Positions 1,279-36,231 are shown, counted from the stretch's first letter. The stretch is 64,000 nucleotides of DNA from Candidatus Levyibacteriota bacterium (GCA_029260905.1 JAJDCH010000002.1:15546-79545); one strand, 5' to 3'. A program made the numbers and translations. Notes: a model not told the origin generated them from the sequence alone.

Positions 1279-1300
1279 AAATGCAAGAGTGAAATGGCTC

Positions 1301-1329
1301 TTGACATCATTTGGCAGTCGTGTTATATT
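1301..1329 (+). promoter_or_regulatory. Sigma70-type promoter TTGACA-N17-TATATT upstream of hrcA
   Basis: TTGACA at 1301-1306 and TATATT at 1324-1329, with an exact 17-nt spacer, about 28 nt upstream of the hrcA ATG at 1357. Confidence 0.55.
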
Positions 1330-1337
1330 ATTGCTAA
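1311..1337 (+). promoter_or_regulatory. Degenerate CIRCE-like inverted repeat (HrcA operator candidate) overlapping the hrcA promoter
   Basis: TTGGCAGTC-N9-TATTGCTAA compared with the CIRCE consensus TTAGCACTC-N9-GAGTGCTAA, matching 7/9 in each half. hrcA is encoded immediately downstream. Confidence 0.35.
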
Positions 1338-1356
1338 TTCTGTTAACTTAAGTTCA

Positions 1357-2088
1357 ATGCATAATTTAACTCACAGACAAATAGAAATATTAAAAAGTAT
1401 TATTGAAGAATATATCGAGACAGCTGAGGCTGTTGGATCTGAGACTATTGAGAAGAAACACAATTTGTCAGCAAGCCCTGCAACTATTAGAAATGAGATG
1501 GTAAAGCTTGCAGAATATGGATACATCAAAAAAACCCATTCTTCAGCAGGACGTGTGCCAACAGCAAGGGGACTTAAGTTTTACGTTCATGAGTTGATGA
1601 AAGAAAAAGAGCTTTCAACTGTTGAGGAGGTAGCGCTTAAGGAAAGGGTTTGGGATTATAGAGCGAAAATGCAGAGATTTCTTAAGGAAGCAACAAGATC
1701 TCTTGCAGCAAAAACAAATACTTTGGCAATTGCCACAACAAACGAAGGTGAGCTTTATTGTTCTGGATATGCAAATATTTTAGATATGCCAGAGTTTCTT
1801 GATATAGATTTGACGAAAAACCTACTTGAAGTTTTGGATGAGTATGATGTTTTTTCAAGTATTTTTGCAAATGTCTTACCTGATGATGAAATTCATATCT
1901 TGATTGAGGATGATCTTGGATCAGCACTGAGAGGTCCATACGGATTTATTTTTACTGAGTACTCTACACCATTAAATGGTCATGGGAAGATAGGAGTATT
2001 GGGGCCTGCGCGTCTTGCCTATACATCAATAGTGCCAACTGTTAGATACTTTGGTGATTTGATAAGAACTAGTGCTGAAGGGTGGTAG
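1357..2088 (+). CDS. hrcA: Heat-inducible transcriptional repressor HrcA
   Basis: Winged-helix N-terminus and HrcA-typical segments (SASPATIRNEM, GVLGPARLAYTSI). It sits at the head of a grpE-dnaK-dnaJ operon. The start was moved to the internal Met at 1357, downstream of the promoter. Confidence 0.85.
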   Translation: MHNLTHRQIEILKSIIEEYIETAEAVGSETIEKKHNLSASPATIRNEMVKLAEYGYIKKTHSSAGRVPTARGLKFYVHELMKEKELSTVEEVALKERVWDYRAKMQRFLKEATRSLAAKTNTLAIATTNEGELYCSGYANILDMPEFLDIDLTKNLLEVLDEYDVFSSIFANVLPDDEIHILIEDDLGSALRGPYGFIFTEYSTPLNGHGKIGVLGPARLAYTSIVPTVRYFGDLIRTSAEGW

Positions 2089-2105
2089 GTTCTGCGAAGC
2101 AGAAC
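2089..2105 (+). terminator. Hairpin GTTCTGC-GAA-GCAGAAC directly after the hrcA stop codon (possible attenuating terminator)
   Basis: Perfect 7-bp stem with a 3-nt loop, followed by a short T-containing tract. Confidence 0.3.
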
Positions 2106-2146
2106 GCTTATTGTATGGCATTTAGTTTATGGTTAGTAATCATGCA

Positions 2147-2175
2147 TTGACAGAATAAGGATGAAAATTTAGAAT
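2147..2175 (+). promoter_or_regulatory. Sigma70-type promoter TTGACA-N17-TAGAAT upstream of grpE
   Basis: TTGACA at 2147-2152 and TAGAAT at 2170-2175, with a 17-nt spacer, ending 7 nt before the grpE ATG. Confidence 0.5.
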
Positions 2176-2181
2176 AAAAAA

Positions 2182-2652
2182 ATGGATAAAAAAGAAAAAA
2201 AGAAAGAAAAAAGAGATGAAAGCGCACAGATTGATAAAGAACCAGAAGAGTTAAAAGAAAAGATACATGATTTTGAGGATAAATACAAAAGAGCGCTTGC
2301 GGATTATCAAAATCTTGAAAAAAGAGTGGGTGATCAGAGAATAGAGCTTATTCGGGGAGCAAATCGAGATTTGCTCTTGAGACTTCTTCCGGTTTTGGAT
2401 ACACTGATGCTTGCGAGCGTGCATACAGAAGATCAGGGAGTAAAAGTAACTGTTCAGCAATTTATAGATACATTAAAAAACGAAGGGGTTGAACGGATTG
2501 AGACAAAAGGTGTACAATTTGATCCAACGACCATGGAGGCGATAGCCACAGGGGACGGGAAGGATGGAGAAGTTTTGGAAGAGCTGAGGACTGGTTTTAT
2601 GATAAATGGTAAATTATTAAGACCAGTTCAAGTTAAAGTAGGAAAATCCTAA
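2182..2652 (+). CDS. grpE: Nucleotide exchange factor GrpE
   Basis: Size (156 aa), a K/E-rich N-terminus and its position between hrcA and dnaK. Confidence 0.85.
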   Translation: MDKKEKKKEKRDESAQIDKEPEELKEKIHDFEDKYKRALADYQNLEKRVGDQRIELIRGANRDLLLRLLPVLDTLMLASVHTEDQGVKVTVQQFIDTLKNEGVERIETKGVQFDPTTMEAIATGDGKDGEVLEELRTGFMINGKLLRPVQVKVGKS

Positions 2653-2717
2653 ATACAAATTTCAAAAGTTTTAGGAATTAGAGATTGGAATTTAGAATTT
2701 GTCCTGAAAGGAGATTT

Positions 2718-4631
2718 ATGGGAAAAATAATAGGCATAGACCTAGGAACAACTAATTCATGTGTAGCCGTGATGGAGGGTGGTTCACCAAAGGTGATTCA
2801 TTCAGCTGAAGGGCGTAATGTCATTCCATCTGTTGTGGATCCTGTAACGCATGTTGTCGGAGATGTTGCCAAGAGACAACTTGTTCTTAAGCCAAAGCAG
2901 ACCGTCTTCTCAATCAAGAGACTGATGGGAAGAAAGTTTAAGGATAAGTCAGTTCAGGAAGACATGAAGTGGCTTCCGTATACTGTTAAAGCAGGAAGAA
3001 ATGACATGGCAGTTGTTGAGGTAGATGGTAAAACCTATACCCCTCAGGAGTTATCCGCTCAAATTCTTCAAAAGATTAAATCTGATGCTGAGAGCTATCT
3101 TGGCGATAAGGTGACTCAAGCTGTTATCACAGTTCCTGCTTATTTTGATGATTCAGAGAGACAAGCTACCAAGCAGGCAGGAGAGATTGCTGGACTTGAA
3201 GTTTTGAGGATTATCAATGAGCCAACAGCAGCAGCTCTTGCCTATGGGCTTGATAAGAAAAATGCGCACACCATTGCTGTTTATGATTTGGGTGGTGGTA
3301 CATTTGATATCTCAATCCTAGAGCTTGGAGAAGGTGTTTATCAGGTAAAATCAACTAATGGTGATACTCATCTTGGCGGAGATGATTTTGACCAGAAGAT
3401 AATTAATTATCTTGCTGAAGAGTTTCTAAAAGAAAATAGCGTGGATTTGAGAAAAGATCCTCAAGCTCTGCAAAGACTAAAAGAATCAGCTGAAAAGGCA
3501 AAGATAGAGCTTTCGAGTTCACAAGAAGCACAAATCAATCAGCCATTTATAACTCAGGGAAAAGACGGTCCCCTTCATTTGACTTTGACTCTTACAAGAT
3601 CCAAGCTTGAACAGATTGTAGATGAACTGATTCAAAATACATTAAAGCCTGTTGAGAAGGCATTAGCAGATGCAAAGATAAAAACAACTGATGTTGATGA
3701 AATAATTATGGTTGGTGGCATGACCCGAATGCCAAAAGTGGTTGAAGCAGTCACGAAATTCTTTGGTAAAGAACCAAATAAGTCAGTAAACCCAGACGAG
3801 GTTGTTGCAATAGGAGCAGCAGTTCAGGGAGGGGTTCTTGGTGGTGAGGTAAAAGATGTACTTCTTTTGGATGTGACACCTTTGACACTTGGGCTTGAGA
3901 CGCTTGGTGCTGTTTCTACACCACTTATTGACAGGAATACAACAATTCCAACTAGTAAGTCACAGGTTTTTTCAACTGCTGCTGATAACCAAACACAAGT
4001 AGAGATAAATGTTTTACAGGGTGAGAGATCAATGGCTGCTGATAACAAGTCTTTGGGACGATTTATTCTTGATGGTATTCCGCCTGCGCCTCGTGGCGTG
4101 CCACAGGTTGAGGTGACTTTTGATATTGATGCCAACGGAATACTAAGCGTTTCTGCAAAAGATAAGGCATCAGGAAAGGAGCAAAGCATTAAGATAACAG
4201 GTAGTACTGGTTTATCAAAAGAAGAAGTTGAAAAAATGACAAAAGATGCTGAGTCCCATGCTAAAGAAGATGAGGAGAAAAAGGGTAAGATTGAGGCCCG
4301 AAATCATGCAGATGCTCTTATTTTTACAGCTGAGAAGTCACTTAAAGATGCAGGGGATAAAGTAGCCGATGATGTTAAAAAAGAAGTTGAAGAAAAGACA
4401 AAAGAATTAAAAGATATTTTGGATAGTGGCACCAAAGAAGACTTGGAAACAAAGACTAATGAGCTTTCAGAAACGCTTCAAAAAATTGGTCAAGCAGCAT
4501 ATCAGCAGGGTCAGAAAGCTCAGGAAGAGCCTGAAATTGAAAGCGAAGAAAAGGAAGGTAAGAAAGATGATTCAGAATCTGAGAAGAAAAAAGATAAAGA
4601 CGAACCTGTTGAGGGAGAAGTGGTAGAATAG
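2718..4631 (+). CDS. dnaK: Molecular chaperone DnaK (Hsp70)
   Basis: N-terminal [21 protein letters not shown] and the Hsp70 substrate-binding domain. An AGGAG Shine-Dalgarno sits 7 nt before the ATG at 2718. Confidence 0.95.
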
Positions 4632-4666
4632 CTTTTAGCTTATGGCTTTTAGCTTTCAGGAATTTA

Positions 4667-4687
4667 GAGCGCAGAAGCGCTTTTTTA
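4667..4687 (+). terminator. Rho-independent terminator after dnaK (AGCGC-AGAA-GCGCT plus TTTTTT). A TATAAT at 4689-4694 may give dnaJ its own promoter.
   Basis: 5-bp GC stem and tetraloop, followed by a T6 run. Confidence 0.45.
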
Positions 4688-4706
4688 GTATAATAAAACT
4701 GTTATT

Positions 4707-5597
4707 ATGGCAAGTGAAAAAGATTATTATCAAGTTTTGGGTGTTACCAAATCAGCTAGTGCTGATGAGATAAAAAAGGCTTACCGCAAACTCGCCCTTG
4801 AGTATCATCCAGATCGCAATAAAACTAAAGAGGCAAATAATAAGTTCAAAGAAGTGACAAAGGCCTATGAAGTCCTATCAAATGATCAGAAAAGAAAGAC
4901 CTATGATCAATTCGGACATGCTGCTTTTGAGCAGGGTGGTATGGGAGGGGCAGGCGGCGGCGGTAACCCGTTTAGCGGTGGTCAACAGGGAGGACAATAT
5001 GGGCCATTTAGATACACCTATTCATCAGGCGGGCAGGGATCTGATTTTGATTTTGGAGGTTTTTCAGACCCATTTGAGATATTTGAGCAGTTTTTTGGAG
5101 GAGCGCAAAGACAGAGAAGACCTGCGTATTCAATCAGAATTAATTTTGATGAAGCAGTGAAAGGTGTTGAGAAGCAAGTAAGTATAAATGGTAAACCACA
5201 AAAAATAAAAATACCTCCAGGTGTTGATCGGGGATCTCGTATCAGATTTAGTGAATACGATATTGTGGTAGATGTAACACCTGATCCAAAATTTCAAAGA
5301 GAGGGTGCAGATATAGTTACAGTTGAGGATGTGTCTTTTCCTCAAGCTGCTCTTGGTGGAGAGCTTGAGATCGAAACAGTTCATGGAAAAGTAAAATTTA
5401 AAATACCATCAGGTACGCAGCCTGAAACACTGGTGAGGCTTAGTGGAAAGGGTATGCCAAGGATCAATAAGTCTGGAAATGGTGATCATTATGTCAAAAT
5501 TAAAGTTACAGTTCCTAAGAAGCTGAATAGGGATCAGAAAAAGATTCTGGAAGATCTTCTCAAAGAAGAGAAAAAATCAGGAAAAAGCTGGTTTTGA
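4707..5597 (+). CDS. dnaJ: J-domain co-chaperone (DnaJ/CbpA-like). It has a G/F-rich region but no CxxCxGxG zinc finger.
   Basis: J domain with HPD (YHPDRNK), Gly/Phe-rich linker and C-terminal substrate-binding domains. No Cys-rich repeats are present. Confidence 0.85.
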
Positions 5598-5635: not shown

Positions 5636-6013
5636 ATGGCTCGTTTCGTTCTTTCTATATTTTTTTTGTTTGTTTTTATTTTTTCACCAGTTCAGGTATT
5701 TGCAGCAGGGTCAGGAGCGGATTGTGATTATTCAAAGGAGATAAATACTGATTTTGGTTGTCTTCCCAATGATCCGATTGGATTTGTGCAGGAATTTTAT
5801 GGAATAGGACTTAGCTTTATTGCAGCGCTTTCTCTTTTGGCGTTAATAATTGGAGGCTATAATGTGATGACATCCAAGGGAGATCCACAAAAAGCAAATA
5901 TCGGCAAATCATGGATATTTTATGCAATTGGAGGTTTGGTTCTTGCAATTTTTGGATATATATTTATAAGACTTATAATCGTTGATATTTTGAAGGTTCC
6001 AGGATTCTCATAG
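5636..6013 (+). CDS. VirB2/TrbC-like type IV secretion pilin-like protein (signal peptide plus two hydrophobic helices)
   Basis: 125 aa. Signal peptide, then helix-loop-helix with the loop GGYNVMTSKGDPQKANIGKS. It is a paralog of the C-terminal module of ORF 475..1278. Confidence 0.5.
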   Translation: MARFVLSIFFLFVFIFSPVQVFAAGSGADCDYSKEINTDFGCLPNDPIGFVQEFYGIGLSFIAALSLLALIIGGYNVMTSKGDPQKANIGKSWIFYAIGGLVLAIFGYIFIRLIIVDILKVPGFS

Positions 6014-6016
6014 TTT

Positions 6017-8512
6017 ATGAAAAAACTTCTGCCCAGTCTAATACTCTTTCTTTCTGTTTTTTTGGGAATAATGTTTTTTAATACTCCTCAGACTTTGGCT
6101 ACAGGCGCTTCTCCAGGTACAACTGCAACTACGGTAAGTGATGATAAATTGCCTGCTGGCACATGGAGACAAGATTCTGAAGTTACATTTATAGGTAAAA
6201 GCGCAGCAAGAGCCCGCACCATGCTTGATTGGACTATCCAAAATTATAATTGGATTTGTGTCGAGCGTATAGTAGGCACAAGTCAGTGTAATGATACAGA
6301 TAATCCCCTTCAGTCATTTTGGTTGAGGATTGTTACCTATATTGTGGTACCGCTTTTGTTCGTGGCAGTTTTGATTAGTGCTGCAGTAATCATTATTACA
6401 CGTGGAAGATCTGTTACCATCATGCGGCTTTTACCTCGTTTCTTGGGTGTTGTGATTTTAATCTTTTTTACCTATTCACTTCTGCAGTTTTTTTATCAGT
6501 TCTCTGATTTGATACAAGGATTTTTTCTTCGTCATCCAACAGAAACAGCACAGGATGGGACAACATCTTGTCCCCCAAGCTGTATTGGAACTAAAGATTT
6601 GTTATATGTTGGTTGGGATTATGATACTTTTCTTGGCTTGAGACTCGCAAGCCCAGATGCAAATAATTCAAATGCTGAGTCAGCATTCATGTCGCTTCTT
6701 CTCACCAAAATGACTGCCATGACTTACTACGTAATGGTAGGGATTCTTATTTTGAGGAAGATTATTTTATGGTTTTTTATTGTAGTATCGCCTGTCTTTC
6801 CGTTACTTTTGTTATTTTATCCTATCAGAAACACTGCCAAAATCTGGATTGGTGAGTTTTTCCGTTGGCTTCTTTATGCTCCGCTTTTTGCAATTTTTCT
6901 TCAGGGTCTTGTTTTTATGTGGAGTAATCCAGTTGGAATACCGCTTGACTTTAAATCAACAAAAATAGGAGTTGAGCAGGGCAGGATTGGTTCACCTGCC
7001 AAGGATGAGAATACGCTTTTTCCAACAACAGTAAATATTCTTCTCGGGGGTCCACAGGAGGTTGTAACTATTAGCAATAGTATTAATCTTACAGAAACAT
7101 TTGCGAAGTATGTTGTTGCTCTTTTGATGCTTTGGGGCGTTATCATTCTACCCTGGATACTCCTTCAGATCTTTTTGGATTATTCATCCAATTTTTCTGT
7201 AGGTGATACAGCTGTGATGAGAACCCTTCTTAATGTTAAAAATAAACCCCCAGCTCCTACTGGCACCCCTCCGAGTACCGGTCCGCCATTTAGCTTACCA
7301 TTTGCAAAGAAATTTGATTTGCGTCCTCCACAAACCCCACCCTCTGCACCAACTGGAGTAGCCAAGGAATTGCCTATTAGTACAGGTCGAATGATGCAGT
7401 CACATAATATGCCATCAGCTCAGATTAAGGCTCAGACTCTTAGTCTTTCAAATGTTACCCTTCCAACAATTCGTGATATTGCAAAATACGACACAGCAAT
7501 CACTTCTCGTGATACTACCAAGCAACAGGATATTATTAGGATGAGAGATACTCTGACAAAGATCGGTAATCCTGCAAGTTCCAGTTCTGACAGCCAGCGT
7601 TACACCGAAGTCCGCAGCAAGCTAACAAAAGAAAGCCAAGATGGAAATCAGTTGGCAGCATCAATTCTTAGCGCAGCAAATATAGCTACCAACAAGTCTG
7701 CTCAAAATCAAAATAGGCAAATAAAGAATGTTCTTAACCAGATAGCTAATCCAACAACAGCACCAGCTGTTACAAAGAAATTTGACACTCAAAAAGTTGC
7801 TCAGCTTCATGATTCGCTTGCTAAAGCAAGTAAGCAAGGAAACGCTTTGGCAACTTCTATTCTTTCAGTTGATGAAAAGACATCAGAAAAAGAAATTGAG
7901 GCATTGAAAGAGAAAATAGCACAGGCTAAAAAACGAAGCGATAAGCTTGCAGCTGAGGTGTTAGATGTTACAGATAAAGAAGTGGAAGCAGGCCTTCCTG
8001 CCGTAAATAGAGTTCAGACTGTCAGTCAGCAGGATTACCAGGCAGTTAAGGATATGTGGAGAGAGAATTACAAGAATCTTGAAGTTCCACAAGGCATGGC
8101 CGGAACAAGATCAGATTGGATCAAAGAAGATGTTGAAAAAATTAATAATATTGTAAACATGCTTTCATCAACCAGTCCGGATGACATGAAGAAGGGAATG
8201 GATGAAGTTTCTGATATTTTGCCTTTCCTTCTGGTTGGTGGCTTCTCTCAGACAGAAATTATATCTTATTTGAAGGCAAAGAAAGAAGCAGGACAAGAAG
8301 TAAATAGTCAACTTGCCACAGAGGAGGATGATAAGGTAGAGGTTTCAACACAGAAAGCAGAAACAAAACGAGAGATGGCTGCAACGCTTGAAGAGGAAGA
8401 TGCTACAAAGGGACAGGAGGCAAGTCAACCGTCATCTGTTTCTGTTCCTGATGAACCAAAAGTTGATGATGAAAAAGCAGTTAAGCCTGCAGATGAGAAC
8501 AAAAAACAATAA
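6017..8512 (+). CDS. Polytopic membrane protein, possibly VirB6/TrbL-like. It has a long hydrophilic C-terminal tail carrying repeats.
   Basis: Signal/anchor sequence, at least 6 predicted TM helices, then a P/T-rich linker. A C-terminal repeat module (KASKQGNALATSILS...) is homologous to the C-terminus of the downstream Clp ATPase. Confidence 0.45.
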   Translation: MKKLLPSLILFLSVFLGIMFFNTPQTLATGASPGTTATTVSDDKLPAGTWRQDSEVTFIGKSAARARTMLDWTIQNYNWICVERIVGTSQCNDTDNPLQSFWLRIVTYIVVPLLFVAVLISAAVIIITRGRSVTIMRLLPRFLGVVILIFFTYSLLQFFYQFSDLIQGFFLRHPTETAQDGTTSCPPSCIGTKDLLYVGWDYDTFLGLRLASPDANNSNAESAFMSLLLTKMTAMTYYVMVGILILRKIILWFFIVVSPVFPLLLLFYPIRNTAKIWIGEFFRWLLYAPLFAIFLQGLVFMWSNPVGIPLDFKSTKIGVEQGRIGSPAKDENTLFPTTVNILLGGPQEVVTISNSINLTETFAKYVVALLMLWGVIILPWILLQIFLDYSSNFSVGDTAVMRTLLNVKNKPPAPTGTPPSTGPPFSLPFAKKFDLRPPQTPPSAPTGVAKELPISTGRMMQSHNMPSAQIKAQTLSLSNVTLPTIRDIAKYDTAITSRDTTKQQDIIRMRDTLTKIGNPASSSSDSQRYTEVRSKLTKESQDGNQLAASILSAANIATNKSAQNQNRQIKNVLNQIANPTTAPAVTKKFDTQKVAQLHDSLAKASKQGNALATSILSVDEKTSEKEIEALKEKIAQAKKRSDKLAAEVLDVTDKEVEAGLPAVNRVQTVSQQDYQAVKDMWRENYKNLEVPQGMAGTRSDWIKEDVEKINNIVNMLSSTSPDDMKKGMDEVSDILPFLLVGGFSQTEIISYLKAKKEAGQEVNSQLATEEDDKVEVSTQKAETKREMAATLEEEDATKGQEASQPSSVSVPDEPKVDDEKAVKPADENKKQ

Positions 8513-8555: not shown

Positions 8556-11500
8556 ATGTTTGGGAAATTATTTGATCAAAAAAAAGAAGATGATCAAAAT
8601 GCTGCTGCCCCCCAACAGGGACAGGCTACTCAGTATTTTGATCAGCCACCTCCTGGTCAGCAACAGGTAGCACCGAATCAACCGGCTCAGCAAGTAGTTG
8701 CTCAACAGCCAGTAGCACCGACGCCTACTCCTCAAGCTAGTCCTGCAGATAACGCTGCTTCTCCAATTCAGAGTCAGGTTTCACCTCCTGTTGATGGAGC
8801 AACTTCAGCACAGCAGCAAGAACCTATACAGCCAGACACCTCTGCTGCACTTACTCATCTTGACCCTTTAGCAACTCAGGTTTTGACACGAGCGCAGGAA
8901 GAAACAAAAAGAATAAATCAACAGTTTATTGAACCCGAACAGATTTTACTTGCGATAATAAATGATCAGCAGACATATAAGCTTTTGGATGAGTTTAAGA
9001 TTGACGGAGGAGCTCTTTCAAAAGAAATTCAGTCAAAAGAGACAATGGGCGTTTTTAAGTCTCAGCCAACCCTTAGTCCTGTCTCGCAGAAGATTTTTGA
9101 TGCATCTTACAAAGATGCAAAGAATAGAGGCTCCAACTTTGTCACTCCTCAGGATATTTTTATACAGCTTTTATCCAAAGATTATCCTGTTTCAAATTAT
9201 CTAACAAGCAAAGGGCTTATGAAAGAAGCAGTAATTGAAAAGATGGCAAAAAACGCTGATCTTAATTATTCACATAAAACTATTCTTGAAACATATGCAA
9301 CAGACCTAACAGAGGAAGCGCGAACAGGCAAGCTTGATCCTGTTGCAGGACGTGAAAAAGAAGTTGATAGGATTGTTCATATTTTACTTCGAAGAACTAA
9401 AAATAACCCGATTATAATAGGAGAAACTGGAGTTGGAAAAACAGCAATAGTTGAGGGGCTTGCCCAGCAAATCGCAGCTGGTCAGGTTCCAAAAGATTTA
9501 CAAAATAAAAGAGTTTTTCAGCTTGATGTCTCATCTCTTATTGCAGGAGCCTCCCACAGGGGTGAATTTGAAGAAAGACTGCGTGGTGTTGTGAATGAAG
9601 TAATGGGATCCAATAATACAATTATTCTTTTTATTGATGAAATCCACAGTCTCTTAGGAACTGGTGATGGTGAAGGAATGAGTGCAGCAAACATCATAAA
9701 ACCACACCTTGCTCGTGGTCATTTGCAAATGATCGGTGCCACGACAACTATTGAATATAGAAAAAATTTTGCGAAAGACAAGGCGTTTGAGAGACGATTT
9801 CAGCCAGTTACTGCTGAGGAGCCATCTGAGGAAAATGCAGTCGAGATGCTTAAGGTTTTGAGACAAAAATATGAGAAGTTTCATAAGGTAGAAGTTTCTG
9901 ATGATACTTTGGTTGAGTGTGTGAAGCTCTCAAAGAAATATATTGGTGAACGTTATCTACCTGACAAGGCAGTTGATCTTTTGGATGAAGCATGTTCTGA
10001 GGTAAAATTGCAGATAGATGCAGGAAAGAGAAAAGAAGCTCAAGTAAGAAAAGGAGACATAGAAAAAGTTGTCAGTATTTGGACTGGTATTCCTATTACC
10101 AAATTAACAGAAGATGAAAGTCAAAAGCTTCTTAAGCTTGAAGATAGAATTCATAAGAGACTGATTGATCAGGAGCAGGCAGTTGTTGCTGTTGCTGAAG
10201 CGGTAAGGCGTGGAAGAATAGGTCTTGCTGCTGCAAATAGACCAATTGCATCCTTTATATTCCTTGGCCCAACAGGCACGGGTAAGACGGAACTTGCAAA
10301 GACTTTGGCGGAGCTTCTTTTTGGAAGAGATGACGCGATGGCAAGGCTTGACATGTCTGAGTATATGGAGAAGCATGAGGTTGCTAAGCTAATTGGCGCG
10401 CCACCAGGATATGTTGGTTATGAAGAGGGTGGTCAGCTCACAGAAGCAGTTCGCAAGAAGCCTTATTCAATCGTTCTTCTTGACGAGATCGAAAAAGCGC
10501 ATCCTGATGTTTTTAATATACTTTTACAGCTTCTTGAAGATGGAAGACTTACAGATAATAAAGGAAATACAATTTCTTTTAAGAATACAATTGTTATTTG
10601 TACGTCCAATATTGGTAGTAGCTTGATTCAGCAGAAATTAAATGAGCATGATTCAAAGACAGCAAAGACCAAGGAAGAATCAGAAAAACTATTCGAAGAA
10701 TTAACAGCTCTTGCAAAAGAAGAATTGGTCAAATTTTTCAGGCCTGAGCTTTTGAACAGATTTGATGAGACAGTTATTTTCAGGCCTCTTCTGCTTGAGC
10801 ATATGGCCGGCATCACAAGACTTGGTATTAAGAAAACAGCAGGTCTTTTGAAGGAGCAGGGATATAATCTTCAGATTACAGAAAAAGCAATTGCGCAACT
10901 TGCAAAAGATGGTTACGATCCTGTTTATGGGGCAAGACCTCTGAGAAGGCTTATTCAAACAGCGATTGAAAATCCTGTGGCGCTTGAGATTATATCCAAA
11001 AGATTTACACCTGGAGATACAATCTTAATTGATTATGATTCTGAGAAAAATACATTCGTGTTTACAAAAGGTGAGCAGAGCAAGGTATTTAATTCTGAAA
11101 ACATTAAAAAGACTTTGATGGGTGTTTTGCATCCTGAAACAGCCAGCGAAGATGATAAGGAAAAGCTGAAAATCCTGCATGATAAGGTCGAAGAAGCAGC
11201 CAAAAACGGTAATGAGCTAGCAGCAAGGATAATGGCTATGTCTGATGCAACAACAGCTGAAGAGACTCAAAAGATAATGGATGATTTGAAGGTTGCGCGA
11301 GAGAAAGAGGATCCTGTTTCTGCAGATATTTTAGCCTACGTTAATGCTGTTCTTTCAGCGCAAGCAACAGTAGAGCAGGAAGCTGATCCGATGTTTATAT
11401 TCAAGAAAAAGCTTCAGCAAATAGCAAATCCTTTGTATACAGCTGATGAAAAAGATAAAGAAAAATTTAATCATCTAAATGATATGCTTACAAAAGCTAG

Positions 11501-12059
11501 TCAGGAAAACAACGAATGGGCAAAAACTATACTGGCTTTAACAGATCAGACATCTGATACAGATATAGAAAAAATAAAAACAGATCTTGAAAAAGCAAAG
11601 GCAAATGGAGATCAGTTGGCAATCAACGTCCTGCAGGCGATATCTGATTCTGAGACAGCTGAGGTGGCTGGGTCCAGTCAAGAAGAAACTACCAAAGAAC
11701 CAGTTGCTGGCGCAGAAGATAAAAAAGCTGAGGGGGTACCACCTGTTCCAGTATCAGTGGCTGATCAGCCAAAAGAAGTGGTAAAGCCCGCTGTTGATTC
11801 ATCAAAAGGTGCGCCGTTTGGTTTGGCAAACGCGCCAAGTGCGCCTGACACAAGTCATATTACACCAGTTGAGTCCGTTGTTGCAGATCAGCCCGTTGTA
11901 GTTGCAGGAAATCCTGCGCCAGTTGAACCAACACCTCCTGCATCAGGAGGAGCGACCCTATCACAAAGTGCTGGAATGACAGCTTTGAATGAGCACTTAG
12001 AAAAAGAAAACAACATCATTTCTACCTCAGTCGAATCCGATGGTGAGAATATTTCCTAA
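8556..12059 (+). CDS. Clp-family AAA+ ATPase with two nucleotide-binding domains. It is ClpA-like, with no ClpB M-domain, and has an N-terminal Q/P-rich extension and a C-terminal repeat extension.
   Basis: Clp N-domain repeats. D1 Walker A IIIGETGVGKT; D2 Walker A FLGPTGTGKTE. LLDEIEKAHPDVFNILLQLLEDGRLTD and GARPLRRLIQ are present. The D1-D2 linker is short, like ClpA. No IG[FL] ClpP-docking tripeptide was seen. Confidence 0.8.
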   Translation: MFGKLFDQKKEDDQNAAAPQQGQATQYFDQPPPGQQQVAPNQPAQQVVAQQPVAPTPTPQASPADNAASPIQSQVSPPVDGATSAQQQEPIQPDTSAALTHLDPLATQVLTRAQEETKRINQQFIEPEQILLAIINDQQTYKLLDEFKIDGGALSKEIQSKETMGVFKSQPTLSPVSQKIFDASYKDAKNRGSNFVTPQDIFIQLLSKDYPVSNYLTSKGLMKEAVIEKMAKNADLNYSHKTILETYATDLTEEARTGKLDPVAGREKEVDRIVHILLRRTKNNPIIIGETGVGKTAIVEGLAQQIAAGQVPKDLQNKRVFQLDVSSLIAGASHRGEFEERLRGVVNEVMGSNNTIILFIDEIHSLLGTGDGEGMSAANIIKPHLARGHLQMIGATTTIEYRKNFAKDKAFERRFQPVTAEEPSEENAVEMLKVLRQKYEKFHKVEVSDDTLVECVKLSKKYIGERYLPDKAVDLLDEACSEVKLQIDAGKRKEAQVRKGDIEKVVSIWTGIPITKLTEDESQKLLKLEDRIHKRLIDQEQAVVAVAEAVRRGRIGLAAANRPIASFIFLGPTGTGKTELAKTLAELLFGRDDAMARLDMSEYMEKHEVAKLIGAPPGYVGYEEGGQLTEAVRKKPYSIVLLDEIEKAHPDVFNILLQLLEDGRLTDNKGNTISFKNTIVICTSNIGSSLIQQKLNEHDSKTAKTKEESEKLFEELTALAKEELVKFFRPELLNRFDETVIFRPLLLEHMAGITRLGIKKTAGLLKEQGYNLQITEKAIAQLAKDGYDPVYGARPLRRLIQTAIENPVALEIISKRFTPGDTILIDYDSEKNTFVFTKGEQSKVFNSENIKKTLMGVLHPETASEDDKEKLKILHDKVEEAAKNGNELAARIMAMSDATTAEETQKIMDDLKVAREKEDPVSADILAYVNAVLSAQATVEQEADPMFIFKKKLQQIANPLYTADEKDKEKFNHLNDMLTKASQENNEWAKTILALTDQTSDTDIEKIKTDLEKAKANGDQLAINVLQAISDSETAEVAGSSQEETTKEPVAGAEDKKAEGVPPVPVSVADQPKEVVKPAVDSSKGAPFGLANAPSAPDTSHITPVESVVADQPVVVAGNPAPVEPTPPASGGATLSQSAGMTALNEHLEKENNIISTSVESDGENIS

Positions 12060-12114: not shown

Positions 12115-12450
12115 GTGAGCATGAATTCTTATCTGTCTATTCCACTTATTATTTTGAAGTTTTGGTATTTTGAGGCGCCAAGGGGAATTCTTGGTTATTT
12201 TGGATCGCTTAATAAAGCTTTTTTTGATTTCTTTTCACTACCTCTTTTTCTTAAGACCTATTTTAAGCCCCTGAAAAATGAATACAGACAAGGCTTGGTT
12301 GGTTTCTCAAGAGCAATGGGAATTATCATAAAGACAGGCTTTATTGTGATTGATCTGATAATCTTAGCCACTCTTTTAGTATTTGAGATAGGAGTAATTG
12401 TCGGATTTTTGGCATTTCCGATTCTTACTTTTTGGATGTTGTTTGTTTGA
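12115..12450 (+). CDS. Small membrane protein (hypothetical)
   Basis: 111-aa ORF with hydrophobic helices, lying between the two Clp-like genes. Confidence 0.4.
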   Translation: MSMNSYLSIPLIILKFWYFEAPRGILGYFGSLNKAFFDFFSLPLFLKTYFKPLKNEYRQGLVGFSRAMGIIIKTGFIVIDLIILATLLVFEIGVIVGFLAFPILTFWMLFV

Positions 12451-12459
12451 AAAGAAAAT

Positions 12460-14868
12460 ATGTTTTTTTACGCACGAATTTATCATTTTTACAGGCGAGC
12501 TTTATTAAGAGCCATACGCCTTTTTGTTTTTGCTGTTTTGCTTCTTATTATTTGGCCAAGTGTAGAGGCAGGAGGCTTGCCGAAAATTCCACTTTTCTTG
12601 TTTAATCTTTTTGTTATTTGGGAGATATTTTTTCATTTTAAGATTGGGCGTGTGATGCCTAGTTTAACAATTGAAAAGAATCAAAAAAAAGATCCTTATT
12701 TATCTTTTACACTCCAGGCAATTCTTCCATTTGTAGAGGAAGTAAAGACAGGAAATATTATAAGAAAAATTGTTAAGTACCCGCAAATTAAAGCCATAAT
12801 GCAAAAAGCAGACATAGAAGACAAAGACTTGAATTTTCCAGATGTGCCAGTTGATCTTTTGGCGCAATCCGCTTTTGAAACAGCACGTACGTTCAGGGCA
12901 AAATATGTGACATCTATTGATCTTTTTGCAGCATACATTTTTCTTATAGAGAAAGACACCGAGCTTCTTTTTGCCAAACAATTAAAGATAGATGATCTAA
13001 ATAATATTGTACGTTGGGCAAAGATAGAGTATCCAGATGAAGAAGAGCCCAAGAAAATAAGGACAGGGTCGTTGGGTGAGGGAATAGGAGAAGTATTAAC
13101 AACTGGATGGACTTATGAAACCAAAAAATATACAGTATCATTTTCATCTATTGCTCTTGGCAATAAACCTTTGATACTTGGGAGAGAGGCTGAATTTCGA
13201 CAATTAATTGAGACACTTATAAAAATAGAAAATAATAATGTGCTGCTGGTTGGAAATATAGGTGCGGGAAAGGAGAATTTGGTGCGGGCATTTTCTTATT
13301 ATTCTTTTACGGGTGAGCTTGGAGGGCTTCTCAATTACAAAAAAGTACTTCAACTTCTTACTGGTGCATTGACAGCTGGCGCATCACAAAGAGGAGATCT
13401 TGAAGTACGACTCCAAGAAATAATTGCTGAGATATCACATGCTGAGAATGTGCTTATTTATATACCTGATATTGAAAATATACTTGGTGGCGCGTCCTAC
13501 AACCTTGATTTATCAGGGGCACTGCTTCCTTATCTCAAGACAGGCAATCTGCCGGTTGTGGCAACTATGACAACTGGTGCTTACAAAACCTACATGGAGA
13601 AAAATCCGATTAAGGAGGCTTTTACTGTTATAAGTCTTTCAGATCCAGGCCCTGATGTTGCAACACAAATGGTACTTAGTGAGGCAAAAAAGATTGAGAA
13701 AAAATACAATGCCATCATTACATATGGTGCTGTTAAATCTTCTGTTGAGTTAGCCGGGAGATTTCTTCAGGATCAGGTACTTCCGGGTAGTGCTGTATCA
13801 CTTCTTGAGACAGTTGCAAATAAAGTTGCGCTTGATAAAAACGTTGTTTATTTTGAGCATACCAAGAAAAAAGCAGTTCTCAAGGATCATGTGGTTAGTG
13901 AGGTGGAGACTGAGGCGCATGTGGCAATCGGCACACCAAGCGATCAGGAGATAGAGCTACTTTTACATCTTGAGGAGAGGCTTCATGCGCGGGTTATCCA
14001 TCAGGATGAGGCCATCACTGCCATATCTGAGGCGATGAGAAGAGTCAGATCGGGAATGAGTACTAGCGAGAGGCCTGTCTCATTTTTGTTTCTTGGCCCA
14101 ACTGGTGTGGGCAAGACTGAGACAGCCAAGGCTCTTGCTGATTTTTATTTTGGTGGTGTCAAAAATATGATCAGGCTTGATATGAGTGAGTACTCAGATG
14201 ATGCGGGAGTAAGGCGTCTTCTTGGAGCGCTTCCAGGTGAGGGACAGGAAAGAGGAGAGCTGACTGATAAGATTCATGATAATCCAGCAAGCCTTGTTCT
14301 TCTTGATGAGTTTGAAAAAGCAAATCCCAAGATTCATAATTTATTTCTCCAGGTTTTGGATGATGGACGATTAACTGATAATAAAGGTGTGACTGTAAGT
14401 TTCCGTAACGCCATAATCATCGCCACATCCAATGCAGGATCTGAATTTATTCGTGAAGAAGTGGGAAAAGGTGTGGCAGTTGATAAAAGTTTTCAAAGAA
14501 ATCTGCTCGAGCATCTTCAGACTAATAGGCTTTTTAAGCCTGAACTTCTTAATCGATTTGATGATGTAGTTACCTTTAAACCACTTGCCAATGAAGACGT
14601 AATTCAAGTTGTAAAATTAATGCTTGGCAACTTGATTAAAACAATGGCTGAACAAGATATAGTCCTCGCCTTTGATGATGCTGTTATTGAGAAGATTAGC
14701 AAAGAAGGTTTTGACGCGCAGTTTGGGGCTAGGCCACTGAAGCGTTATATTCAGGATAATCTTGAGGACATAATTGCCCAGAAAAAACTTACAAAAGAAC
14801 TGGATAGAGGCAAGAGAGCTTCTTTCTCAATTGATGGAACAGGCGCGCTGACTGTAACCATTTCGTAA
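12460..14868 (+). CDS. Membrane-anchored Clp-like AAA+ protein. D1 is degenerate; D2 is intact but lacks the pore-loop tyrosine.
   Basis: N-terminal TM helices. D1 Walker A is GNIGAGKE and D1 Walker B is IPDIEN (degenerate). D2 has FLGPTGVGKTE, LVLLDEFEKA and GARPLKR intact. GALPGEGQ replaces the GYVG pore loop. Confidence 0.7.
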   Translation: MFFYARIYHFYRRALLRAIRLFVFAVLLLIIWPSVEAGGLPKIPLFLFNLFVIWEIFFHFKIGRVMPSLTIEKNQKKDPYLSFTLQAILPFVEEVKTGNIIRKIVKYPQIKAIMQKADIEDKDLNFPDVPVDLLAQSAFETARTFRAKYVTSIDLFAAYIFLIEKDTELLFAKQLKIDDLNNIVRWAKIEYPDEEEPKKIRTGSLGEGIGEVLTTGWTYETKKYTVSFSSIALGNKPLILGREAEFRQLIETLIKIENNNVLLVGNIGAGKENLVRAFSYYSFTGELGGLLNYKKVLQLLTGALTAGASQRGDLEVRLQEIIAEISHAENVLIYIPDIENILGGASYNLDLSGALLPYLKTGNLPVVATMTTGAYKTYMEKNPIKEAFTVISLSDPGPDVATQMVLSEAKKIEKKYNAIITYGAVKSSVELAGRFLQDQVLPGSAVSLLETVANKVALDKNVVYFEHTKKKAVLKDHVVSEVETEAHVAIGTPSDQEIELLLHLEERLHARVIHQDEAITAISEAMRRVRSGMSTSERPVSFLFLGPTGVGKTETAKALADFYFGGVKNMIRLDMSEYSDDAGVRRLLGALPGEGQERGELTDKIHDNPASLVLLDEFEKANPKIHNLFLQVLDDGRLTDNKGVTVSFRNAIIIATSNAGSEFIREEVGKGVAVDKSFQRNLLEHLQTNRLFKPELLNRFDDVVTFKPLANEDVIQVVKLMLGNLIKTMAEQDIVLAFDDAVIEKISKEGFDAQFGARPLKRYIQDNLEDIIAQKKLTKELDRGKRASFSIDGTGALTVTIS

Positions 14869-23271: not shown

Positions 23272-24606
23272 ATGGATCCAACTGCCCAAAATCCACAAAA
23301 TCCTGCAGGCGCGACCACAGCTCAAACACCGCAACAGCCAACACCTGAGGAGCAGGCTGCTGCAGGGAGGGGAGATGCAGCACCTATTCAAAATAGCACT
23401 GTTCAGGCGCAAAACTCATCTGAGGCTGAGGCTTTGAGTAAGGTTGCATCTGTTAATTCTGCACAAATGATAAATAACGATAAGACTCAATTTGAGGCCA
23501 ATCAGGCGCAAAATAGCACGAACACACCAGTAACTGATCATGGAAGATCTTCTGATCAGATCCGCGTGCTTGGTGAAAAAATTGAAAAAGCAGCAATTCC
23601 TGAGGATTTCAAAAAAGAACTGCTTGATCGTATTTCACGGCTTGCAATGATAAGATCAAGCGCCGGTTTTCTTAGCTCAACCTACATAATGGAGTATGAA
23701 TCAACCAATAGATTTGTTAATTGGGTTCTTAGTCTTCCGTGGGGCAAGAAAAGTGAGGACGTGCTTGATCTCAACCGCGCCAAGGAGTGGATGGATAAAA
23801 ATCACTATGGACTTGAGCCGCTTAAACAAAGAGTGCTGGAGTATATAGCATCACTAATGTTAAATATCAAGAATTATGGTCAGACAGAAAATGTAATAAA
23901 GGCGCCAATTCTTTGCATAGTAGGTCTTGCCGGAACTGGTAAAACGACTTTTGCAAGATCTCTTGCTGGAGCCTTAGGTAGAGAGTTTGAGCGTATTCCA
24001 TTTGGAGGTATGGCTGATTCGCGCGTATTGAGAGGTCAGTCGCGTTATTTTCCTGATGCAGAACCTGGACAAGTTATGAAGAGACTTGCAAAGGCGGGTA
24101 CTAATAATCCTGTTATTCTTCTTGATGAGTTGGATCGTGTAACTGATACAGCAAGAGCTGATATCATGGGTGTTCTTATTGAGATACTTGATCCGGAACA
24201 AAACGCCAGATTTACTGATCATTACATAGACTATCCATTTAGCTTGCAAAACGTTTTATTTGTCGCAACAGCAAATAATGTCAGCAGTGTTTCAACTGCC
24301 GTTCTTGACCGTTTAGAAATAATACAAATGCCATCATACAATGATGAAGAAAAAACAGTTATCGGACGGGATTTTGTGTTGCCAAAGACAATGCAAACAA
24401 CTGGTCTTAAGCCTGAGCAGATGACTATTGATCCTGCTGTTTGGGAAGGGTTGGTGCGTCCTCTTGGTTATGATCCTGGTGTCCGTGGACTTGAGCGGGT
24501 CATAACTGGAATGTGTAGAAAAGCTGCGAAAATAATCATATCTGGTCAGGCGCAATCAGTTGTCATAAATAACGAAAATGTGAAACAGTTTTTGCCTGAG
24601 TGGTAA
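23272..24606 (+). CDS. Lon-family AAA+ ATPase module with no LAN N-terminal domain and no S16 protease domain. The N-terminus is Q/N/A-rich low complexity.
   Basis: Strong colinear similarity to the Lon coiled-coil and AAA+ region: LPWGKKSEDVLDLNRAKEWMDKNHYGLEPLKQRVLEYIA, GLAGTGKTT, VILLDELDRV, EILDPEQNARFTDHY, VLDRLEII and DPGVRGLERVITGMCRKAA. The ORF ends where the Lon protease domain would begin. Confidence 0.75.
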   Translation: MDPTAQNPQNPAGATTAQTPQQPTPEEQAAAGRGDAAPIQNSTVQAQNSSEAEALSKVASVNSAQMINNDKTQFEANQAQNSTNTPVTDHGRSSDQIRVLGEKIEKAAIPEDFKKELLDRISRLAMIRSSAGFLSSTYIMEYESTNRFVNWVLSLPWGKKSEDVLDLNRAKEWMDKNHYGLEPLKQRVLEYIASLMLNIKNYGQTENVIKAPILCIVGLAGTGKTTFARSLAGALGREFERIPFGGMADSRVLRGQSRYFPDAEPGQVMKRLAKAGTNNPVILLDELDRVTDTARADIMGVLIEILDPEQNARFTDHYIDYPFSLQNVLFVATANNVSSVSTAVLDRLEIIQMPSYNDEEKTVIGRDFVLPKTMQTTGLKPEQMTIDPAVWEGLVRPLGYDPGVRGLERVITGMCRKAAKIIISGQAQSVVINNENVKQFLPEW

Positions 24607-35500: not shown

Positions 35501-36229
35501 TTATATCTTCTCAGCTTTTGATTTTATTATCAACCTTTTCCAGGTTGTACCAGGCGGTGTACATGTAACAATTGTTAGATAAGAGCCGTCATATTGTTGA
35601 GTTAGATACGAGGTGTCTTCGGCATCAGTAACTGAGATATCAAATATTTTGTAATTATAAATTTTTCCATCTGATGAGACCTGAATATCATCGCCTGGTT
35701 TTACGCTATGAATATTGGCAAAGATCGTTTTATAGTTTTTTGGATCAAAAAGCTGTGGAAGGGTTGAGTGACCAAAAATGACAGATGTGCCACGATTTGG
35801 GGGTATAGCAGTTCCTGGAAAATTGACAAGATTGGAGGAAAGGTCAAGATTAACGGTTGAAGCTATTACATCTTTTATGCCGATTGATTCAATAGACAGA
35901 TAAAAAAACGATACATTACTTTCCTCCTCTTTTTTATGTGACGGTGGTAACCAGTTAGGATTGCCATTAAAATTAACACTTGAGATAGATTCTGCTGTGG
36001 TTTCAAAAAAGCTTTTTATAGAGTTTTTTGAAAGAATAAATTTTTGTGGGATAGGTGATGTATAAGTGCTGCTAGCAAAAGCAGGTTTTACGTAAAGTTC
36101 CCATGAAAGAATTGGAAACATCACATAAAGTCCGAAAAATAGACCAAGAAGTGAAATACCAAGTCCGCCAAGCCTTATTGTTTTTTTGATTTTTTTGGTG
36201 TCTGCTTTTTTGTAAACTTTTTTAATCAT
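35501..36229 (-). CDS. Sortase (transpeptidase)
   Basis: N-terminal TM anchor, His in IFGHSTL, the TLxTC motif LTIVTCTP with the catalytic Cys, and a conserved Arg (WKRL). Confidence 0.8.
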   Translation of the reverse strand: MIKKVYKKADTKKIKKTIRLGGLGISLLGLFFGLYVMFPILSWELYVKPAFASSTYTSPIPQKFILSKNSIKSFFETTAESISSVNFNGNPNWLPPSHKKEEESNVSFFYLSIESIGIKDVIASTVNLDLSSNLVNFPGTAIPPNRGTSVIFGHSTLPQLFDPKNYKTIFANIHSVKPGDDIQVSSDGKIYNYKIFDISVTDAEDTSYLTQQYDGSYLTIVTCTPPGTTWKRLIIKSKAEKI

Positions 36230-36231
36230 AT

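Follow-up and report, generated by a model that had tools for sequence, protein, structure and literature searches.

The 64,000-nucleotide stretch of Candidatus Levyibacteriota bacterium DNA analysed here (GCA_029260905.1, JAJDCH010000002.1:15546-79545; below, the window) encodes, at positions 8556 to 12059, a Clp/Hsp100 ATPase that lacks both of the accessories by which Hsp100 motors are classified: the M-domain, associated with DnaK-coupled disaggregation, and the IGF loop, associated with ClpP-coupled degradation. The loss of both coupling elements by this protein, called Clp in what follows, together with a repeat module that it shares with the VirB6-like membrane protein encoded next to it, points to a dedicated, membrane-linked and so far undescribed job. 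The interpretation to which we give an even chance is that Clp is a ClpP-independent, M-domain-less unfoldase acting at or with the adjacent VirB6-like protein; action at that protein is proposed because the synteny of the two genes is strict and the module they share is exclusive. The features of Clp, by position in the window, strand and amino acid (aa) residues, are these:

8556..12059, plus strand: complete open reading frame (ORF) of the Clp/Hsp100 ATPase, ATG start, 1167 aa, from the ORF list and Pfam architecture.
8556..8585, plus strand: conserved N-terminal peptide MFGKLFDQKK, aa 1-10, a motif found at the extreme N-terminus of homologs.
8586..8855, plus strand: Q/P/A-rich low-complexity linker, aa 11-100, defined by composition.
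8865..9290, plus strand: Clp N-domain, aa ~104-245, from the Pfam Clp_N match and an alignment to the ClpB N-domain starting at residue 17.
9291..10043, plus strand: D1 AAA+ module with its lid, aa 246-496 (Walker A GETGVGKT, Walker B ILFIDE, Arg fingers ERRFQ).
9543..9578, plus strand: D1 pore-1 loop AGASHRGEFEER, aa 330-341, with Lys-Tyr changed to Ser-His.
10011..10091, plus strand: short D1-D2 junction, aa 486-512, the site of the M-domain in ClpB, ClpC and ClpV.
10092..10790, plus strand: D2 AAA+ module, aa 513-745 (Walker A GPTGTGKT, Walker B IVLLDE, sensor-1 TSN, Arg finger NRFDE).
10395..10430, plus strand: D2 pore-1 loop GAPPGYVGYEEG, aa 614-625, with canonical GYVG, invariant in homologs.
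10605..10736, plus strand: D2 surface loop at the position of the ClpP-docking IGF/IGL/VGF tripeptide, aa 684-727, charged and without a hydrophobic tripeptide.
10791..11063, plus strand: D2-small domain (PF10431), aa 746-836, with sensor-2 GARPLRR.
11103..11366, plus strand: tail repeat module, copy 1, aa 850-937, from repeat comparison and a helical AlphaFold2 (AF2) model.
11400..11663, plus strand: tail repeat module, copy 2, aa 949-1036, on the same grounds.
11664..12059, plus strand: P/V/A/S-rich low-complexity C-terminal end, aa 1037-1167, and stop codon, defined by composition.

An identical protein is present in a public collection (P0001), encoded on a 146,890-bp NCBI contig. Pfam places Clp_N at aa 113-160, AAA (D1) at 286-399, AAA_lid_9 at 424-496, AAA_2 (D2) at 562-738 and ClpB_D2-small (PF10431) at 748-824. 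The characters of a class-I Hsp100/Clp protein, tandem AAA+ modules with catalytic motifs, a Clp N-domain and a D2-small domain, are all found, and inspection of motifs showed the Walker A and B, sensor and Arg-finger residues to be intact in both rings. Since these catalytic residues are kept and the D2 GYVG is canonical, Clp is expected to be an active double-ring motor, that is, a class-I Hsp100/Clp AAA+ unfoldase with two catalytically complete rings.

Two sets of sequences served for comparison. The close homologs are 119 aligned sequences from a large protein collection (58-76% identity, lengths of about 850 to 1660 aa); those that are named come mostly from Patescibacteria (Levybacteria, Saccharimonadales, 'Patescibacteria group'), with a few metagenome-assembled genomes (MAGs) labelled otherwise. 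The controls are 80 ClpC-type genes of diverse phyla taken from a scan of reference genomes. Because the features of Clp are kept across its 119 closest homologs, they define a family rather than one odd protein.

The M-domain of ClpB/Hsp104 is a DnaK-docking and regulatory element, which represses ClpB. A model that had read the DNA without database searches (the sequence-only reading) described the D1-D2 linker of Clp as short and ClpA-like, with the M-domain absent. The shortness and the absence stand; the likeness to ClpA is one of layout only, the scores given below favouring ClpB and ClpC. In the alignment to E. coli ClpB (PDB 6og3), residue 490 of Clp pairs with ClpB 408 and residue 495 with ClpB 529, such that some 120 ClpB residues, the whole M-domain, have no counterpart, the junction being precise. 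The stretch that separates reference residues 478 and 509 measures 31-33 aa in 116 of the 119 homologs, and the spacing from the D1 loop to the D2 Walker A is 241 aa in Clp as against 296 aa in the ClpC-type controls. The ClpA model TIGR02639 aligned in a single stretch (Clp 107-825 to model 6-732). The ClpB and ClpV models align as two stretches, those of ClpB flanking the M-domain, and ClpC (PDB 6em8, 3j3s) also aligns in two, the second starting at about residue 490 of Clp and residue 463-465 of the ClpC chain, consistent with an M-domain skipped in Clp. In none of the alignments to ClpB, ClpC, ClpA and ClpV did an overlooked M-domain or IGF loop come to light.

The scores of Clp against the NCBIfam models fall below every equivalog cut-off: 858.8 bits for ClpB (TIGR03346; cut-off 1232.1), 703.3 for ClpA (TIGR02639; 993.15), 656.9 for ClpV/TssH (TIGR03345; 884.95), 655 for ClpK (1900) and 638 for ClpG (1900). 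Against proteins of solved structure they are 677 bits for E. coli ClpB, 666 for S. aureus ClpC and 485 for ClpA. With ClpB and ClpC scoring above ClpA, the simplest explanation of the ClpA-like layout is that a ClpB/ClpC-like ancestor lost its M-domain, and the layout probably did arise in this way and not by ClpA ancestry. Database labels of the homologs are generic: ClpB, ClpC or AAA family ATPase. The architecture, its conservation and the sub-cut-off scores all support the overall proposal of the sequence-only reading, that Clp is a specialised unfoldase, neither a canonical ClpB nor a ClpAP or ClpCP partner; its functional part we infer from the elements that are missing.

The IGF/IGL loop is the element by which Hsp100 unfoldases dock ClpP. 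It too had been reported missing from Clp, correctly: the sole match to [ILVM]G[FLM] is an IGL at residue 555, upstream of the D2 Walker A and outside the sensor-1-to-Arg-finger loop, where ClpA, ClpC and ClpX dock ClpP. In that D2 loop the pattern occurs in none of the 119 homologs, compared with 62 of 71 ClpC-type controls. Because the M-domain and the IGF/IGL loop are both absent, the Clp motor is most likely autonomous and, judged by its sequence, would work without ClpP and without M-domain-mediated coupling to DnaK.

The replacement of Tyr by His in the D1 pore loop proved to be a family character. Clp reads AGASHRGEFEERL (S333, H334) where ClpB has AGAKYRGEFEERL; S333 is found in all 119 homologs and H334 in 117. 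The aromatic (Tyr) D1 pore-1 loop KYRGEFE that marks a ClpB is thus SHRGEFE in Clp. Among the 80 ClpC-type controls, the position of the His is occupied by Tyr or Phe in 79 and K-Y-R is intact in 73. The D2 pore loop is GYVG in every one of the 119 homologs; neither this loop nor the intact catalytic residues figure in the sequence-only reading. The family is therefore a natural experiment in pore-loop chemistry, with His conserved at a site that is Tyr in nearly all relatives. A further Clp ORF, of about 795 aa and open at the contig end, lies at 9893-12280 of contig L062, from a MAG labelled Candidatus Saccharibacteria. It has an M-domain of ClpC size, yet His in the D1 pore loop (AGSKHRGDFE); no IGF-like tripeptide was seen by eye in its D2 loop, and its gene neighbourhood is unrelated. 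If this protein is of the same lineage, the Tyr-to-His change may be separate in origin from loss of the M-domain.

The N-terminal extension is as had been noted, a stretch of about 95 aa rich in Q, P and A ahead of the Clp N-domain: Q makes up 22% of residues 1-100 and A and P 16% each, together 54%. At its very start, and absent from the sequence-only reading, is the decapeptide M-[FL]-G-x-[LI]-F-N-Q-K-K, conserved in 112 of 116 homologs; M-[FL]-G-x-[LI]-F stands at the extreme N-terminus in the same number, a conservation that supports the assigned start codon. The linker that follows it in homologs is P/Q/A/S-rich, variable in sequence and of median length 106 aa. The arrangement suggests a short linear motif on a tether of about 100 aa that is disordered and varies in sequence. 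Both extensions recur in the family, as the lengths in the 119 homologs show: the medians are 108 aa for the N-terminal and 475 aa for the C-terminal extension, about one homolog in six being short-tailed.

The C-terminal extension, estimated earlier at about 330 aa and said to carry a shared repeat, is a tail of 331 aa (837-1167) with two copies of a module of about 88 aa. The module recurs in the upstream VirB6-like protein, at aa 509-570 and 569-659 (1.7 units; nucleotides 7541-7993), and the tails of the two proteins match at E = 7e-11 (composition-adjusted BLASTP). A module profile built from four units and searched against 1.84 billion cluster representatives yielded no more than 119 proteins, of which 44 matched at E < 1e-30. 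Eighty of the 119 are VirB6-like polytopic proteins, in which up to 20 stretches match, two belong to the Clp family and 37 match neither probe; nearly all of the 37 are short and they are probably fragments. Among the classifiable matches, the module is found outside the Clp family only in the tail of the adjacent VirB6-like family. The number of copies in related loci ranges from 2 to 11 in VirB6-like proteins and from 0 to 4 in Clp. The copies show position-specific orthology between genomes, and the identity of Clp modules to VirB6-like modules is 29.2% in the same genome and 28.2% across genomes. The positional orthology and the equality of these identities indicate that the module is old and has been maintained in both proteins, not recently exchanged. 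The AF2 model of Clp aa 836-1045 is all-helical, with about five helices per module and a predicted local distance difference test (pLDDT) score of 84.8. It has no significant match in PDB (best E 0.16) and the module has none in Pfam; no binding specificity can accordingly be assigned to it. Short-tailed syntenic Clps that were looked up (891, 928 and 950 aa) all stand beside very long VirB6-like proteins (1607-2790 aa).

The genes around Clp are, in order:

1294..5597, plus strand: hrcA-grpE-dnaK-dnaJ, from Pfam, with a 38-bp gap to the pilin-like gene.
5636..6013, plus strand: small VirB2-like protein of 125 aa (T4SS_pilin), having a signal peptide and a pair of hydrophobic helices joined by a basic loop.
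6017..8512, plus strand: VirB6/TrbL-like polytopic membrane protein, 831 aa, from a weak Pfam TrbL match, Foldseek and the shared module.
12115..12450, plus strand: small hydrophobic protein, 111 aa, with counterparts of 109-110 aa in loci L004 and L088.
12460..14868, plus strand: second, membrane-anchored Clp-like ATPase, 802 aa, with two N-terminal transmembrane helices, a pseudo-ATPase D1 and a catalytic D2.

There is moderate evidence that the 831-aa protein upstream of Clp is VirB6/TrbL-like. PF04610 (TrbL) matches 9 of 16 members of its family at E <= 0.01, the best at 1.5e-6, and the top five PDB matches found by Foldseek with its AF2 model (pLDDT 68) are all TrwI/VirB6 of R388. In the VirB6-like family, net charge is positive in the loop at 129-141 (+3.7), around 247-283 (+2, +2.1) and at the start of the C-terminal tail (+1.2); the loops at 29-102, 163-224 and 303-365 are net negative, the first two of them carrying Cys, and residues 218-303 are modelled by AF2 as a long helical hairpin. 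The charge pattern and the hairpin together fit five membrane crossings after the signal peptide, with the N-terminus outside and the C-terminal tail inside, the topology reported for Agrobacterium VirB6. The tail would then be cytoplasmic, in the same compartment as Clp, which is taken to be cytoplasmic because it has no signal peptide or transmembrane segment. Across loci L001, L004, L088 and L089 and the present one, the VirB6-like partner varies from 831 aa here up to 2790 aa, with module matches in up to 20 stretches; in many of the long members, a further hydrophobic segment lies some 60-90 aa from the C-terminus. The 125-aa protein scores just below the PF18895 cut-off (E 2.8e-5, 24.5 bits), and a gene of about 100-137 aa fills the VirB2-like slot in all related loci. 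A 267-aa Cys-rich protein with a clear T4SS_pilin domain (40.9 bits) is encoded at 475-1278 on the minus strand, divergently from hrcA, which places VirB2-like genes on both sides of the dnaK region.

The order on the plus strand is hrcA, grpE, dnaK, dnaJ, VirB2-like, VirB6-like, Clp, the 111-aa protein and the second Clp-like ATPase; one short minus-strand ORF, nusA (plus strand) and infB come after these. Six other genomes were reached from Clp homologs, with Clp identity to the present one of about 60-68%. The order dnaJ, pilin-like, VirB6-like, Clp is found in five of them, only the VirB6-like gene being visible upstream in the sixth. A Clp paralog of 750-805 aa lies downstream in all six, adjacent or several genes off, and nusA is next wherever the locus extends far enough. 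Over all related loci, such a downstream paralog is counted in seven, and seven genomes are counted as sharing the order from dnaJ to the paralog. In six other loci whose upstream region is visible, dnaJ directly precedes the pilin/VirB6-like pair, and the dnaJ-pilin-VirB6-like block is present in a further contig, L090. The D1 of the second Clp-like ATPase has a GAGKE Walker A, P-D or P-E in place of the Walker B acidic pair (IPD here) and no Arg fingers; its D2 is fully catalytic, with the pore loop GYVGY changed to GE--G. These traits are conserved in the five genomes compared, which leaves the membrane-anchored paralog without an aromatic pore-loop residue in either ring.

The window as a whole is ordinary chromosome (rpoB, rpoC, rpsL, rpsG, groEL, secA, nusA, infB, pnp, rnj, ftsK, lepA). 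Its Pfam scan covered 42 ORFs, namely every non-nested ORF of 100 aa or more (39) and three smaller overlapping ones, and none of these is VirB4, VirB11, VirD4, ClpP or ClpX. Although hrcA is present (1294-2088), no inverted repeat of the CIRCE (controlling inverted repeat of chaperone expression) type (TTAGCACTC-N9-GAGTGCTAA) was found in the 64 kb with three mismatches allowed, and no terminator-like hairpin between dnaJ and Clp. Three regions away from the cluster drew attention in passing. A 444-aa protein at 23272-24606 (plus strand) has AAA and Lon_lid domains and no Lon protease domain match, and may be a Lon-derived ATPase without the protease part. An 821-aa ORF at 26447-28912 (plus strand) has no Pfam match; its 2-kb bin has the highest GC content of the window (0.436) and the strongest GC skew (0.31). 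On the minus strand at 35501-38550, a sortase gene (35501-36229) adjoins one for a 772-aa protein (36232-38550) with a weak Baseplate_J match (E 5.6e-7), an odd pairing for a housekeeping region; the match is isolated, 24 kb from Clp.

A mechanism can be sketched for Clp acting at the VirB6-like protein. With the D2 loop canonical and the D1 loop altered, the hexamer would thread substrates mainly by its D2 ring, and the D1 ring would serve specialised substrate engagement as in ClpV of type VI secretion systems (T6SS), which is also without an aromatic D1 residue and for which such handling by D1 has been proposed. The tail module would recruit Clp to the VirB6-like protein's cytoplasmic tail, with the modules touching each other or a shared partner bridging the two proteins, and Clp might there extract, unfold or feed a dedicated client, for which the candidates are the VirB2-like pilin and proteins that pass the platform formed by the VirB6-like protein. 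Extraction of pilin from the membrane is a role ascribed to VirB4 in classical type IV secretion systems (T4SS). The MFGxLFNQKK peptide on its disordered tether of about 100 aa would probably be a second docking or regulatory element. An extension of this scheme, speculative and on balance unlikely, is that Clp, the membrane-anchored paralog, the VirB6-like platform and the VirB2-like pilin are the parts of an undescribed Patescibacteria envelope machine encoded beside the dnaK genes, in which Hsp100 unfoldases replace VirB4, VirB11 and VirD4; the motor, docked by its tail module, would extract pilin or unfold proteins and push them through the platform, as an analogue of HSP101-PTEX.

A number of observations weigh against placing Clp at the VirB6-like protein. 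The link between the two is circumstantial, consisting of a shared domain and synteny, and the position of the cluster, always after dnaJ, fits a general proteostasis role equally well. About 17% of the close Clp homologs are short-tailed and without the repeat module. The syntenic Clp of L004 (891 aa) has no module next to a VirB6-like protein with eleven, which means that module-module docking cannot be universal, and in L090 the VirB6-like gene is followed by a 475-aa unknown gene, not Clp, the contig ending soon after. The 831-aa protein itself matches PF04610 at 16.9 bits (E 0.006), below the cut-off of 25.9; its TrwI/VirB6 matches have probabilities of at most 0.85, weak E values of 0.28-0.6 and target-normalised TM-scores of 0.35-0.46; and the location of its tail rests on the positive-inside rule and a model of medium confidence.

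We consider real but doubtful the possibility that Clp is no more than the housekeeping disaggregase, of ClpB/ClpC type, of this lineage, closing the hrcA-grpE-dnaK-dnaJ region and stand-alone like ClpG or ClpL after loss of the M-domain, with the VirB2/VirB6-like genes as mere neighbours. Its Q/P-rich N-extension or its tail might bind aggregates, or the tail might recruit DnaK/DnaJ in the M-domain's stead. ClpB does give the best family score (TIGR03346, 859 bits) and the sources annotate homologs as ClpB or ClpC; Clp lies on the same strand as the chaperone genes and downstream of them, with short gaps and no intervening hairpin, the linkage to dnaJ is conserved, and some homologs have no tail module. 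However, the DnaK dock of ClpB/Hsp104 is absent from 116 of 119 family members, and the confinement of the module, within 1.84 billion representatives, to two gene families that are neighbours would be hard to understand unless they were functionally linked. Moreover, in having lost the D1 aromatic residue the family resembles the dedicated ClpV, not general disaggregases, and, with no CIRCE operator found in the window, control by HrcA is not demonstrated. The link need not be direct: the tails of Clp and the VirB6-like protein could bind a common third partner, such as DnaK, DnaJ or the membrane-anchored Clp paralog, the module being a shared adaptor-binding domain that concentrates this partner at both. 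In keeping with this, dnaJ and the Clp paralog accompany the cluster at each locus that would show them, module identities are near-equal within and between genomes, with no sign of pairwise co-adaptation, and module copy number varies independently in the two proteins. The module, though, matches nothing of significance in PDB or Pfam; we rate this arrangement as improbable.

Much less credible still is a Clp that activates ClpP after all, docking it by a non-canonical element. ClpP is annotated in cultivated Saccharibacteria, as TM7x_02110 (bioRxiv 10.1101/2022.03.25.485537) and as SEML1_0493 (PMC10633639 supplement), and in Clp the D2 loop that occupies the IGF position exceeds that of ClpB by 13 aa. 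Yet that loop is charged and, in all 119 homologs too, without the tripeptide, the 331-aa tail emerges from D2-small, at just that end of Clp to which ClpP would bind, and no ClpP was found among the 42 ORFs of the window scanned. As for the odd features of Clp being artefacts, of a wrong start codon, of a frameshift fusion that made the tail or of pseudogene decay, we attach almost no probability to it: the N-terminal decapeptide is kept, the same architecture is seen in more than 100 homologs from independent assemblies, every catalytic motif is intact and the tail modules are predicted to fold well. Conservation of these features refutes it.

Patescibacteria make up a large share of bacterial diversity, are mostly uncultivated, and depend on cell-surface machinery for their epibiotic life. 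A Clp family without either Hsp100 accessory, yet with two rings predicted to be active, runs through many independent assemblies of the group, and its position by the dnaK genes and the VirB2/VirB6-like pair, with the shared module, yields a concrete hypothesis of an unfoldase-powered envelope function. We found no description of this family in the literature that could be searched; its gene context has not been described before, the Hsp100 superfamily itself being known. A survey of T4SS components in Patescibacteria does not mention Clp or chaperones in its main text (PMC12102498). The main text of a transposon-sequencing study of the cultivated Saccharibacterium Southlakia epibionticum leaves Clp ATPases undiscussed (PMC10633639), and near dnaJ the genome of that species is arranged differently; in a TM7x transcriptome paper, 'clpB' and 'clpP' are named solely among stress genes (bioRxiv 10.1101/2022.03.25.485537).

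Among known Hsp100s, Clp is most similar to ClpB/Hsp104, with which it has in common the N-domain, two catalytic rings, D2-small, the GYVG loop and the lack of a ClpP loop; it differs in having no coiled-coil M-domain of about 120 aa, a Ser-His D1 loop and, in addition, the N-terminal peptide, disordered linker and 331-aa tail. With ClpA it shares the order N-D1-D2 and the short junction, D1 and D2 being contiguous without an M-domain, but it lacks the IGL ClpP-docking loop and is less similar to ClpA than to ClpB or ClpC. Its similarity to ClpC/ClpE is nearly at the level of ClpB, and the closest relatives in the reference-genome scan are ClpC-type (40-51% identity); unlike ClpC, it has no UVR-type M-domain, no K-Y-R D1 loop and no VGF/IGF tripeptide. 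ClpG/ClpK and ClpL are Hsp100s that act without DnaK and ClpP and bind substrate by extra domains (PMC8129007, PMC8024975). They differ from Clp in keeping M-domains and aromatic D1 loops, and their extra domains are unrelated.

The non-aromatic D1 pore loop is not unique to the Clp family, since it is also found in ClpV/TssH of T6SS. ClpV is a dedicated Hsp100, independent of ClpP and DnaK, encoded inside the gene cluster of a membrane machine. Two annotated TssH/ClpV plasmid genes, of Vibrio gigantis and E. coli, were compared: their D1 loops are AGASIKGEFENR and AGASAKGEFENR (AGASIKGEFE, AGASAKGEFE) against AGASHRGEFE in Clp. As in Clp, Ser stands at the Lys position, D1 is without an aromatic residue, the GYVG of D2 is intact and there is no IGF loop; a non-aromatic D1 combined with GYVG in D2 is a resemblance and by itself no criterion of membership. 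ClpV keeps an M-domain insertion of 105-125 aa and has no tail module, and none of the window ORFs scanned is a T6SS component (tssB/C, hcp, vgrG and others). ClpV thus offers a precedent, in a dedicated Hsp100, for the lack of an aromatic residue in the D1 loop, although Clp itself does not belong to ClpV. The other precedent is HSP101 of the Plasmodium PTEX, a ClpB-type unfoldase stationed at a membrane protein-conducting complex into which it feeds unfolded cargo, and which is among the structure matches of Clp (PDB 6e10/6e11). HSP101 is eukaryotic, keeps its M-domain and works with EXP2 and PTEX150, partners that are not homologous to the neighbours of Clp; the likeness is a functional analogy for the mechanism we propose.

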